IMG/VR virus record: IMGVR_UViG_3300023184_002781
Coordinates: 1 to 64,000 of that record
Source: a virus
Length of the DNA stretch: 64,000 nt
Direction: 5' to 3' (one strand)
Shown: positions 5,186 to 31,549 of the stretch, piece after piece
Layout: each line of letters starts with the position of its first letter
How positions within the stretch are numbered: the first letter of the stretch is position 1
Notes under the pieces: model-generated
Databases searched by the model: none
What the model saw: only the letters and a program-made list of their open reading frames with translations
What the model was told of the DNA's origin: nothing
Translations under genes and position numbers: made by a program

Positions 5186-5491
5186 TCATTCGGGTTCTAC
5201 TTTAATTATCAAAGGCCAACCATGTGCTCTGGCTAAATTGGTTCCATCGATGGCTTTCTGCTCTGCTACTTCAAAACTATAAGTACCTACTGTAGCACTA
5301 CCTTGAGTATGTATTTGTAATGTTAGTACTAATGCTGTTTTTTGATCATGTCTAAACACAGCTATTAACATTGATATTACAAATTCCATAGGAGTTGAAT
5401 CATCATTACATACAATGACTTTAAACTTACCAGGTTCTTTAATCCTATTAATTGTTCTAGTCTTTTTTTCTACTACAGTATCAGTGGTCAT
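5186..5491 (-). CDS. clpS: ATP-dependent Clp protease adaptor ClpS
   Basis: KVIVCNDDSTPMEFVI, IHTQGSA and EVAEQKA motifs. Confidence 0.93.
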   Translation of the reverse strand: MTTDTVVEKKTRTINRIKEPGKFKVIVCNDDSTPMEFVISMLIAVFRHDQKTALVLTLQIHTQGSATVGTYSFEVAEQKAIDGTNLARAHGWPLIIKVEPE

Positions 5492-18395: not shown

Positions 18396-18625
18396 TACAT
18401 TTTTTTGGGTAATTGCTGATCGTTTAGCTTTTTTTTCCATCGGGCTTTAGCTGCACCTTTAGCTCGTTTGCGTGTTGTAGTGGGTTTTTCATAAAACATT
18501 TTGGCTTTGAGATCTTCAAGAAGTCCAGAATCTTCTACTTTTTGTTTAAATTTACGGAGTGCTACTGCTATAGGAAGATCCCCAACAATTACCTTGTTTC
18601 CAAATACTTTATTGTTTTTGCTCAT
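18392..18625 (-). CDS. rpsU: Ribosomal protein bS21
   Basis: ALRKFKQKV...[20 protein letters not shown]. Confidence 0.9.
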
Positions 18626-19841
18626 TTTTCTTTTTATCAAAAATCATTACGGCTGATTTACCGTTTATAGTATCTTTACTTATCCGTATTGATTTTAAAC
18701 CACGTTCTACAAGATCAACAGCGTCAAATTGATAGGGCAACAATACTTTTTCTATAATGTTTTTTAATCCACGAGCATTAGTTTTAAGTTCTTTGGCTTT
18801 CTCGGCAACAACTTGTAAAGCATCGTCATCAAAAGAAAGATCAATTCCATCAAGTTCAAATAGATATTGATATTGTTTTATCAAACTGTTTTTTGGTTCT
18901 TTTAAAACTTTAGCCAATTGCTCAACATTTAGTTCTTCTACATTTATATAAAGTCCAAAGCGCCCAACGAACTCTGGTATCATTCCAAATTTAATTAAAT
19001 CTTTAGTAGTTAATTCTTCATAAATTTTATTGGTGTCTGTTTCATTTTTTATATTAGCATGAAAACCTACTGATTTGGCATCAGTACGTTGCTGAATAAT
19101 TTTATCCATTCCAACAAAAGCACCACCACATATAAACAATATACCACGAGTATCTATTTCTTGCATCTCACTTCCCGGATGCTTACGTTTGCTAGATGAT
19201 GGGATACGCATAACGGATCCTTCAATCATCTTTAGTAAGGCTTGTTGAACACCTTCCCCGCTGACATCTCTAGTGATACTAGCACTTTCACTTTTGCGAG
19301 CAATTTTATCAATCTCATCAATATAGACAATACCACGACTAGCTTTTTCTAAATCCCCATCTGCTTCGCCAATTAAACGTGTAAGGATACTTTCAACATC
19401 ATCTCCAACATAACCTGCTTCGGTAATACCTGTAGCATCACAAATAGCAAAGGGCAAATCTAAATAATCAGCAATCTTACGTGCCATCATAGTTTTGCCA
19501 CATCCTGTTGGTCCTAACAATAGTACATTTGTTTTTTCAATTTCTATTTCTGTACTAGGATTATTAATGCGTTTAAAATGTTGGCTTACTGCCACACTTA
19601 GGGCAATCTTAGCATTGCTTTGTCCAATAACATATTGATCAAGATATTCTTTAATTTTAACAGGGTTCAACAACTTTGCATCTTTAAGATCGTGTTTGAC
19701 TTTTTCATCTTTTAATATATCAACACACAGTTCAACGCAATCGTTACAGACGGCTGCATTCTCACCCACAATTAATTTCTCTACATCTTCTTTGCTTTTT
19801 CCACAAAAATCACAGACATGAGTATCACTAAGTTTTGTCAT
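18609..19841 (-). CDS. clpX: ClpX ATPase
   Basis: C4 Zn finger; [22 protein letters not shown] and VGF loop. Confidence 0.97.
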
Positions 19842-29247: not shown

Positions 29248-29382
29248 TTAAATGTCCATTTCTTCGTAATCTGCTTTACCTACACCGCATTCTGGGCAGC
29301 AAAAGTTATCGTCCAAATCTTCCCATTTACCTTCAGTTTCTTCATCGTGGATATGACCACATACTACGCAAACGTGTTCCAT
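29248..29382 (-). CDS. Rubredoxin (44 aa)
   Basis: Manual: MEHVCVVCGHIHDEETEGKWEDLDDNFCCPECGVGKADYEEMDI; coupled to rubrerythrin. Confidence 0.92.
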   Translation of the reverse strand: MEHVCVVCGHIHDEETEGKWEDLDDNFCCPECGVGKADYEEMDI

Positions 29383-29831
29383 TATAGTGTCTCCAATACT
29401 TGTTTATATGCTTGAGCATGACGTTGCTCAACTTTTTGTAATGCCGCAAAACGTTTTTCTGCTCGGGCTAATACTGCTATAAATTGTTCAGCATGTTCTT
29501 TGCTTTCTTCAATTTGATGATTGGCTTCACGCATGGCTCGTGAATTACCTTCATATTCAGCAGCACGTTTGAATTCTGGATACATGGTAGTAAATTCATA
29601 TGTTTCACCTTCAATAGCTTTTTCCAAACATTCTTTAGTTGATGGTTTGCCAATTAGCAATTCCAAATGTCCCCAAGCATGTAGTAGTTCTTGATCTGCG
29701 GTGTGTTCAAAATGTTTTGCAACATCTTCGTAACCTTCTTCGCGAGCAATTTTTGCAAAGTATCTATATTTGACATGTGCCTGGCTTTCTCCTGCCAATG
29801 CACTTTCTAAGTTTTTAATGGTAAGTGACAT
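29382..29831 (-). CDS. Rubrerythrin (ferritin-like di-iron domain)
   Basis: AGESQA...Y, ELLHA, GETYE...MY and ESKEHA motifs. Confidence 0.93.
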   Translation of the reverse strand: MSLTIKNLESALAGESQAHVKYRYFAKIAREEGYEDVAKHFEHTADQELLHAWGHLELLIGKPSTKECLEKAIEGETYEFTTMYPEFKRAAEYEGNSRAMREANHQIEESKEHAEQFIAVLARAEKRFAALQKVEQRHAQAYKQVLETL

Positions 29832-29943: not shown

Positions 29944-29969
29944 AAAAGAAACCCGCCGAAGCGGGTTCT
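29944..29969 (-). terminator. tmRNA terminator
   Basis: AGAACCCGC-TTCG-GCGGGTTTCTTTT. Confidence 0.85.
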
Positions 29970-30217
29970 GTTATTTTCTGTTACGAGGTATAACTACCCT
30001 AGGCGGCGTTTAGGCGGCCAAGGCGAACTGTGAGTCGTTTGCATTTACTTTTTTTGCTTGATTTACGGTCATCGCCTACCGTGCTGTCCACTTCAATACT
30101 CCTGACCCAATCGATCCTGTGTCATCCCCACCTAAATATACTTTATACACTTAGGTGGAGATGCCGGGCACTGCCCCCGGGTCTTGGCTCCATTTTTATC
30201 CGCTTCATACAGCAATA
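29970..30217 (-). ncRNA. ssrA: Circularly permuted two-piece tmRNA, tag ANDSQFALAA
   Basis: Acceptor piece first (T-arm CCGGG-GGCAGTG-CCCGG, CATCTCC-ACC ending 30154), hairpin spacer, then GGGGATG at 30129 (G3:U70); tag at 30042-30010; TAAATA at 30223-30228. Outer ends approximate. Confidence 0.92.
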
Positions 30218-30225
30218 ACTCTTAT

Positions 30226-30372
30226 TTAATCAGCTCGTGTATAATTCAATACCATACCTTGGCCATATTGGGCTTCAGCAATCATTTTAGCCTGCCAATC
30301 ATTATCAGCATTGACAATGACATTAGCAGTTTGATAAGGATTCAAACGAATCCAAACATTGTAACGATACAT
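30226..30372 (-). CDS. Small early protein (48 aa)
   Basis: Manual: MYRYNVWIRLNPYQTANVIVNADNDWQAKMIAEAQYGQGMVLNYTRAD; AGGAG SD; own sigma70 promoter. Confidence 0.8.
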   Translation of the reverse strand: MYRYNVWIRLNPYQTANVIVNADNDWQAKMIAEAQYGQGMVLNYTRAD

Positions 30373-30401: not shown

Positions 30402-30430
30402 ATTATAGCAAGGTTTTACCTATTTGTCAA
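30402..30430 (-). promoter_or_regulatory. Consensus sigma70 promoter with GGTAAAA spacer motif
   Basis: TTGACA-aataggtaaaaccttgc-TATAAT. Confidence 0.9.
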
Positions 30431-30538: not shown

Positions 30539-31549
30539 TTATGTCTTTGTTGGACGCCAGCAACTAACCCAATTGGCATTACTAGCGGCAGTACCGCCTG
30601 GATATGAAATAGTTATATCTCCGTCGTCGGGATTATTCTTGCCACCGCTAGGAGTTTGATTTCCGCCTACAAAACTATATTTTCCATTAGCAGCGGTATA
30701 AACAAAATTTACATGCCTGTAACTCCAGAATGCAATATCACCGGGTCTTGCTTCTGCCTTGGGTACCTGCACTGCTCCCCATTTTTCTGGATTGGTGGTT
30801 ATAAGTGCGGCACTGGCAGTTTGGACATATTTGTAACCAGAATTTTTAAGAGCATAATTAACAAATCCCATACACCATGCAGTTTGATCTGTAGTCCATG
30901 GGTTAGCCGATGGATACCCAAGATTAGTCCAAATACCTGTAATTTTAGCATTACTTGGGTTTCCACCTTGCCCAGTTTCTCTCCATGCACCAGATCCTGC
31001 CTCTGTGACTCTTGCTTCTAAGAATGGTATAATATCTGATGCTGTTGGATCAGGTGCTACCTGACCAGCCGGTACAGTAGCAGGGTCAGCTACTCCTGGA
31101 GTACCTGCATAGTTACCTTTAACACCGTCGGCTGCTGCTTCTGGTTTATAATATGAATTTGGTTGTCCAGTTTGGGCGGTAACATAATTATCAACCAATT
31201 CAACTGCTGCTGCTTGATCAACAGGCGGGATAGTAGCAGTTGTAGAGACAGCAGATGTTCCAAATGTTCCGGCAGTCATTCCCACAAACACATTTGGACT
31301 ACCTCCGGCTCTTGGATGCCCACACGAATCTGAATTACCTTGTACATTTATTGGTATATTTTTAGCAAATACACTTGCAGACCCATTAGCAGTTACAGGA
31401 CTCGTATGTGGAGGAACAAAAGGAGCATGAGAAGATACTGACGACCCATCCACACTAATTGTTAAATTATTTGCCCATACTGATGATTGCTTTGATGTTA
31501 CTACACCACCTGCACTATCTGCATCAGTTGTTCTTGCTACCGCCGGCAT
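30539..31549 (-). CDS. PAAR-like spike-tip domain fused to CHAP/NlpC-P60-like (TIGR02594-type) domain
   Basis: MPAVAR...GSASVFAKNIP...CGH...GSPNVFVG; C-terminal TAWCMGFVN...HVNFV...GGNQ. Confidence 0.82.
   Translation of the reverse strand: MPAVARTTDADSAGGVVTSKQSSVWANNLTISVDGSSVSSHAPFVPPHTSPVTANGSASVFAKNIPINVQGNSDSCGHPRAGGSPNVFVGMTAGTFGTSAVSTTATIPPVDQAAAVELVDNYVTAQTGQPNSYYKPEAAADGVKGNYAGTPGVADPATVPAGQVAPDPTASDIIPFLEARVTEAGSGAWRETGQGGNPSNAKITGIWTNLGYPSANPWTTDQTAWCMGFVNYALKNSGYKYVQTASAALITTNPEKWGAVQVPKAEARPGDIAFWSYRHVNFVYTAANGKYSFVGGNQTPSGGKNNPDDGDITISYPGGTAASNANWVSCWRPTKT

Follow-up and report, generated by a model that had tools for sequence, protein, structure and literature searches.

The analysed stretch of DNA (hereafter the window), comprising the first 64 kb (64,000 nucleotides) of a 96,211-base linear IMG/VR virus record, carries on its minus strand a circularly permuted ssrA gene (~30219-29944), which encodes a two-piece tmRNA with its own tag peptide. 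Helix covariation among related phages, an invariant G3:U70 pair and a tag kept through synonymous changes indicate that this gene is functional and that its RNA structure as well as its tag is under selection. We consider it highly probable that this is a functional, phage-encoded permuted ssrA gene that is transcribed, matured and used, to the benefit of the phage, along the lines proposed below.

The gene was recognized by three Rfam models at gathering thresholds, namely, the betaproteobacterial model (beta_tmRNA, RF01850; 126.7 bits compared to a cut-off of 84, E = 3.2e-38, span 30263-29947), the merged permuted model (tmRNA_permuted, RF04321; 124.9 bits compared to 47, E = 5.5e-24, span 30214-30010) and the alphaproteobacterial model (alpha_tmRNA, RF01849; 84.9 bits compared to 50), whereas the cyanobacterial tmRNA model gave no match. 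These matches are far above the chance expectation. The gene order is permuted: the T arm and the acceptor 3' strand with ACC precede the acceptor 5' strand and the tag frame. ARAGORN made no tmRNA call under default settings; however, with the relaxed threshold (-ps), it reported a permuted tmRNA at c[29919,30245] with the tag ANDSQFALAA. The main claim of the initial annotation, a two-piece permuted tmRNA with an LAA-ending tag, is thus borne out by the three Rfam models and by ARAGORN -ps, and all the sequence elements that it listed (TAAATA, T arm, acceptor, spacer hairpin, G3:U70, PK1-like hairpin, tag and terminator) were found in their places (Table 1). Of the checks that it proposed, the comparison to the Rfam subtype models came out in favor of the gene for beta and alpha, and the ARAGORN check did so in the relaxed mode only. 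The gene was also described as very compact, which holds within the phage family but not overall, since the aligned length (317 nt over 331 positions of the Rfam beta model) is that of an ordinary member of the model. It should be noted that, because default ARAGORN passes over the gene, phage tmRNAs of this type may be under-counted.

Table 1. Features of the permuted tmRNA gene and of its surroundings (positions in the window).
Feature	Position	Strand	Basis or remark
TAAATA promoter-like motif	30223-30228	-	its end is 4 nt upstream of the conserved acceptor-piece start
Acceptor piece	30154-30219	-	Rfam alignments and covariation
Outer P2 strand UGCUGU	30214-30209	-	
P2a strand GAGCCAA	30190-30184	-	
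T arm CCGGG/GGCAGUG/CCCGG	30180-30164	-	loop GGCAGUG
Acceptor 3' strand CAUCUCC	30163-30157	-	
A73; C74-C75	30156; 30155-30154	-	
Spacer (intervening segment), 24 nt	30130-30153	-	hairpin
Coding piece	29944-30129	-	Rfam, ARAGORN -ps and covariation
Acceptor 5' strand GGGGAUG	30129-30123	-	G3 at 30127, gives G3:U70
D-loop analogue	30122-30111	-	
P2 partner strands	30110-30104 and 30087-30082	-	
PK1-position hairpin CGGU-AGGCGAUG-ACCG	30066-30081	-	8-nt loop; hairpin of the Rfam beta model
Tag frame, resume codon GCA to stop UAA, ANDSQFALAA	30010-30042	-	ARAGORN -ps
3' pseudoknot	29970-29999	-	covariation
Pseudoknot stem 1, GGGUA with UACCU	29999-29995 with 29990-29986	-	
Pseudoknot stem 2, GUUA with UAAC	29994-29991 with 29973-29970	-	
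Intrinsic terminator, UUCG loop, then UUUCUUUU	29944-29968	-	8 pairs, 5 of them G-C; fold
Sigma-70-type promoter TTGACA-17-TATAAT with TG	30402-30430	-	12/12 consensus matches
48-aa ORF	30226-30372	-	stop TAA is the first TAA of the TAAATA motif
Rubrerythrin, tmRNA neighbour	29382-29831		
PAAR/NlpC-P60-like protein, tmRNA neighbour	30539-31549		
ClpX unfoldase	18651-19838	-	TIGR00382, 495.6 bits, equivalog cut-off 370.75; ~10 kb downstream of the tmRNA
Ribosomal protein bS21	18440-18592	-	PF01165, 50.4 bits
ClpS adaptor	5207-5440	-	PF02617, 81.7 bits

As in the Rfam beta consensus, A76 is not encoded in the acceptor piece. In the minimum-energy fold, the spacer and A73-C75 form an 11-bp hairpin that is stacked coaxially on the acceptor stem. 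With the sequence GGCAGUG, the T loop is not canonical; this departure counts as known within the tmRNA family, because alphaproteobacterial permuted genes and some Patescibacteria share the loop. At the PK1 position, only the hairpin stands: a second stem that would complete a pseudoknot (30075-30071 with 30062-30056) was only 53% paired on the alignment of homologues and was rejected.

The record as a whole has a completeness of 28% (CheckV) and a G+C content of ~36-37%, and 79 of its 85 genes (crude gene calls) are on the minus strand. Both ribonucleotide reductase subunits are encoded near the tmRNA gene. Given that one relative is represented by a 356,312-base contig with an estimated completeness of 96%, we assign the phage to a jumbo-sized uncultured clade. 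Neither the region nor the tmRNA gene alone had a blastn match among 50,697 cultured-phage records. Viral contigs contain 422 relatives of the neighbouring rubrerythrin, and a 24-nt T-arm/acceptor pattern is matched in 51 viral contigs; from these two kinds of loci in related uncultured phage contigs, nhmmer and ARAGORN yielded 49 distinct tmRNA homologues. Of 28 related records, 21 carry the tmRNA, and the 96% complete genome is among them.

Using an alignment of 29 of the 49 homologues, the window sequence included, we compared the canonical structure to shuffled and slid controls. The fraction of paired cells was 83.8%, compared to 73.5% in shuffles, none of 500 shuffles being as good, and the covariation score was 0.278, compared to 0.121 for the shuffled and 0.04-0.06 for the slid controls. 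In helix P2, which joins the two pieces, 11 of 13 pairs changed on both sides; the outer P2 is 94% paired (both-side changes in 5 of 6 pairs), and P2a is 93.6% paired (6 of 7). The acceptor stem (7 pairs) is paired in all 29 sequences, with three covarying pairs, the alanine identity pair G3:U70 is found in 29/29 and the A73:U-1 pair is kept in 28/29. The T stem is 100% paired, one pair having both-side changes. In the 3' pseudoknot, the paired fraction is 89.7% for stem 1 and 75% for stem 2, all four pairs of the latter having both-side changes. The spacer varies in length (~10 to ~140 nt) between constant flanks, which is the pattern expected if this segment is excised. In three relatives (L128, L058 and L088; alignment columns 172-330), the spacer has ~100-140 nt, compared to 24 nt in the window.

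The initial annotation further proposed that the ends of the RNA pair, GUUAUUGCUGU (30219-30209) with ACAGAAAAUAAC (29981-29970). This pairing is present in the single-sequence minimum-energy fold; however, covariation lends it no support. As a conserved helix it was 67.9% paired, compared to 66.0% in shuffles, with 75 of 500 shuffles as good, and it was rejected. Changes in the 3' strand are matched by its partner in pseudoknot stem 2 and not by the 5' end of the acceptor piece (columns 606/625 versus 105/625). The competing P2 helix and 3' pseudoknot, unlike the end pairing, are supported by covariation.

The tag peptide provides a second line of evidence. The tag ANDSQFALAA is encoded by four different nucleotide sequences; apart from the choice of stop codon, all the substitutions between them are synonymous and fall in five codons. 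Such preservation of the peptide is direct evidence that the tag frame is read. Tags vary between phages (ANDSVYSLAA, ANASNDEIYALAA, ANDNYYTEELRLAA and others); 30 of the 31 distinct tags called by ARAGORN start with Ala, and most end in LAA, MAA or similar. The lone tag that lacks the initial Ala is probably the result of a miscalled resume codon. The closest rubrerythrin-linked relatives (L008 2963-3330, L038, L051 and L007) have long two-part tags of 24-28 residues, e.g., ANANTFEYFKVPASVAFSANDADFAMAA, in which a common AN(A)NTFEYFQV-like first half, perhaps an additional recognition site, is followed by the usual ND..F-ALAA end.

These observations bear on the possibility that the RNA is mainly a competitor or a sensor, i.e., that it titrates host SmpB or AlaRS, or reports stalled ribosomes for the timing of lysis. 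A tmRNA-like RNA of mycobacteriophage DS6A, which has no tag frame, inhibits host tmRNA in E. coli (as cited in PMC11915505), and a role in sensing has been raised for huge phages (PMC7162821). However, in the present case the tag frame is intact and kept by synonymous change, and the canonical degron is kept in the 49 homologues. A pure decoy is disfavoured, since conservation of the tag would be pointless for it, and we regard the competitor or sensor role as very unlikely.

Still less credible, indeed extremely improbable, is that the gene is a passenger, i.e., a recently captured copy of host ssrA or a remnant of an attachment site with no role in the phage. It is true that ssrA is a frequent integration site of phages and genomic islands, and that these often carry fragments of it (PMC9004378). 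Conversely, the phage gene comprises both pieces in full, along with a promoter-like motif of its own and a terminator, and it is widespread and covarying in the phage clade. Moreover, among 75 bacterial contigs with the T-arm motif, the best score with the phage-family profile was 70.4 bits, compared to 75-231 bits with the same profile for 17 phage matches among rubrerythrin loci.

For a functional phage tmRNA, we propose the following course of events. A single minus-strand precursor of ~276 nt would start just after TAAATA and stop at the UUCG terminator; the sigma-70 promoter located 175 nt upstream may contribute additional transcription by read-through. In the precursor, the acceptor stem is predicted to continue into the spacer hairpin. 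Host RNase P would cut 5' of G1 (30130/30129), whereas host 3' trimming and the CCA-adding enzyme would complete the ACC end at 30154, giving an acceptor piece of ~66 nt and a coding piece of ~186 nt, presumably joined to each other through the acceptor stem and helix P2. Assuming compatibility with the host, host AlaRS would charge the RNA via G3:U70, and host SmpB, likewise assumed to be compatible, would bring it with EF-Tu to stalled ribosomes. Translation would then resume on GCA and add ANDSQFALAA, the LAA end of which should send the product to ClpXP, where the phage ClpX probably takes part with host ClpP. The likely benefit for a large lytic phage is that ribosomes are kept available during the breakdown of host mRNA. 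The identity, structure and conservation of the gene and the selection on its tag are shown by the sequence comparisons; the processing sites, the charging, the dependence on host SmpB, the link to ClpX and the benefit are inferred.

The co-encoding of ClpX, ClpS and bS21, as claimed initially, was confirmed by profile matches in the same record (Table 1). The bS21 gene lies directly downstream of clpX in the same orientation, with 58 bases between them (18440-19838, minus strand). In E. coli ClpX, the pore loops GYVG and RKH grip the ssrA tag, and an IGF-type loop docks on ClpP. The phage protein has the C4 zinc finger, Walker A, GYVG and RKH motifs, as judged from the translation and the alignment to a solved ClpX (PDB 8e91), and its docking loop is VGF, not IGF. 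The initial annotation concluded that the tmRNA and the phage's own ClpX form a private rescue-and-degrade pathway. The part of this claim that stood is that ClpX is real and has its motifs; conversely, ClpS is an adaptor of ClpA and not a partner of ClpX, no SmpB was found, and no record has both ClpX and ClpP. Of the smpB and clpP genes, which were to be looked for elsewhere in the genome, neither was found in the 96-kb fragment (28% complete), and smpB was not found in any of 28 related records either, among which is the 356-kb genome of 96% completeness. Among the same 28 relatives, most of which are fragments, ClpX is present in five and ClpP in three others, never together. A self-contained phage pathway of tmRNA, SmpB, ClpX and ClpP thus appears to lack its SmpB, and we infer that phages of this clade depend on the SmpB of the host.

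A stronger form of the same idea is that the tmRNA and the phage ClpX make up a dedicated, phage-controlled rescue-and-degrade module that takes over the quality-control branch late in infection. This is consistent with a ClpX that scores above the equivalog cut-off and carries the RKH, GYVG and VGF loops, with the distance of 3-10 kb between clpX and the tmRNA in all six records with clpX, and with tags that keep a ClpX-type C-terminus. However, besides the missing SmpB and ClpP, the tmRNA and ClpP are encoded without ClpX in the relative of 96% completeness, so the tmRNA needs no phage ClpX. In addition, ClpX is also encoded by cultured jumbo phages (e.g., Atu_ph07, Phosso, phage G and Lak phages), and the late timing is unproven, given the sigma-70 promoter upstream. 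We regard such a module as possible but rather unlikely, and prefer a functional phage tmRNA that works with host factors, with phage ClpX probably contributing where it is present.

With respect to timing, for which the initial annotation proposed late expression, 18 of 55 sense copies of TAAATA are in the intergenic 6.2% of the genome, compared to 5 of 42 antisense copies, and they are mostly located 17-27 nt upstream of start codons. TAAATA is therefore a strand-specific intergenic motif and plausibly a phage promoter. It recalls the T4 late TATAAATA. Ten genes, nine of them with TAAATA upstream, were a mix of tail-fibre-like, nuclease, radical-SAM-like and unknown functions (PHROGs annotation); since the genes behind TAAATA are functionally mixed, the motif does not show late timing. 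The sigma-70-type promoter lies 175 nt upstream of the tmRNA, ahead of a 48-codon ORF; among the aligned relatives, the 3' end of this ORF is not retained in front of the tmRNA. No terminator-like site was found on the minus strand between this promoter and the tmRNA, so that early read-through into the tmRNA is possible. In 11 of the 29 aligned sequences, TAAATA is found at the same register, its end lying exactly 4 nt upstream of the point where the acceptor piece starts, whereas 9 of 29 instead have TTGAC[AT]-N17-TAnnnT, ending 4-5 nt before the same start point. The transcription start thus appears to be fixed, with the promoter class differing between phages, and the presence of either TAAATA or a sigma-70-type promoter at the same register in homologues suggests promoter replacement between related phages.

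The assignment to a subtype, for which we used the best-scoring subtype model, i.e., the criterion of the tmRNA database, gave beta as the best of three models (beta 126.7, alpha 84.9, cyano no match). For 20 phage homologues, all of which pass the merged permuted model (91-137 bits), the best model was beta in 11 (84-161 bits) and alpha in 9 (54-84 bits). Given this split, the phage family straddles two curated subtypes, and the subtype label says little here in phylogenetic terms. Like the betaproteobacterial type (RF01850), the phage gene has a single PK1-position hairpin, one 3' pseudoknot, an ACC end without an encoded A76, a short AND..F/Y-ALAA-type tag and sequence similarity past the stop codon; it differs from this type, with which it was compared by way of the model alone, in the T loop (GGCAGUG versus GGUUCGAUUCC of the model) and in that 9 of 20 homologues of the same family score better with alpha. 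Sharkady and Williams reportedly described the betaproteobacterial two-piece tmRNA in 2004. Among 151 evenly sampled Gammaproteobacteria (including two unpublished genomes, G050 and G152), which were searched for beta-type comparators and for a clue to the host, none reached the beta_tmRNA cut-off.

The likeness to the alphaproteobacterial type (RF01849), known from Caulobacter (Keiler et al. 2000, as cited in PMC9004378), is in the T arm and the acceptor 3' strand, which have exactly the same sequence in genes of Rhodospirillales, Acetobacteraceae and Micavibrio, and in the alignment of the phage-family profile, over nearly all of the profile, to these genes (45-70 bits). However, the tags of those genes are of the ANDN...(L/P)AVAA type and usually longer, and the phage coding piece is closer to the beta model. 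The T loop was initially called alpha-like, and it is indeed identical in alphaproteobacterial permuted genes; it is, however, not exclusive to them, being found in Saccharibacteria and Gracilibacteria too. The 24-nt T-arm/acceptor motif with GGCAGUG occurs in many MAGs of these two groups (L137, L138, L142, L147 and others), in which ARAGORN under default settings made no tmRNA call.

A broader reading is that the tmRNAs of these freshwater phages form a permuted lineage of their own, with an alpha-like tRNA domain and a beta-like coding domain, that they move as a module among aquatic phages, with the timing reset by promoter replacement (sigma-70 or TAAATA at the same register), and that a neighbouring clpX cooperates in a subset. 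In such a lineage, the mixture of domains would result in members split between the alpha and beta Rfam models. We put this forward tentatively and consider it, as a whole, unlikely. Sporadic permuted tmRNAs, alpha or beta, are listed in archaeal and other unexpected phyla (PMC11915505, Supplementary Table 2). Mis-binned phage contigs of the present family are one possible source of these, but this idea found no support in a small sample, as none of the 75 bacterial contigs with the T-arm motif matches the phage profile strongly.

Phage tmRNAs are not new: the OM43 phage Melnitz has a two-piece tmRNA (Buchholz et al. 2022, PMC9004378), two-piece forms account for 53 of 133 unique phage tmRNAs, with 50 of the 53 from aquatic samples (PMC9004378), and the 2025 tmRNA database contains 79 phage sequences (PMC11915505). 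The gene described here shares with those of Melnitz, pelagimyophages and cyanophages the permuted order, the location in large aquatic phages and a promoter of its own (PMC9004378). In contrast, the Melnitz gene is alpha-like and accompanied by a glutamine riboswitch, whereas the present gene scores best with beta and has no Rfam riboswitch match; it also differs from the genes of these aquatic phages in lacking nucleotide similarity to the cultured-phage collection and in belonging to a clade whose most complete member has 356 kb. Huge phages (>200 kb) have been described with tmRNA, SmpB and bS21 (Al-Shayeb et al. 2020, PMC7162821); they are similar in having tmRNA and bS21 but differ in the phage SmpB, none being found in the 29 records here. 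The gene is thus a good example of a kind already described for aquatic phages and not a new kind of system, and the finding alone leaves the current understanding unchanged. What is specific is modest: an uncultured jumbo clade, the mixture of alpha and beta features, two promoter classes at a fixed position, a nearby clpX in a subset and no smpB found. Its value is that of a clade-wide example of a phage tmRNA with clear evidence of selection on RNA structure and tag peptide, and the clade offers natural contrasts for the question of why phages carry tmRNA, i.e., members with and without clpX or clpP and with two types of promoter.

Two further observations concern the copy number and the surroundings of the gene. 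One relative (L221) has a second, weak tmRNA_permuted match (G003:C1:101310-101443; 27.8 bits), which covers the tRNA-like part only and is located 18 kb away from the full tmRNA gene of the same relative. ARAGORN under default settings found no tRNA genes in the 96-kb record. In several relatives (L095, L058, L085, L119 and L118), the tmRNA adjoins large arrays of tRNA genes; for example, L095 has >25 tRNAs within ~4.4 kb beside the tmRNA.
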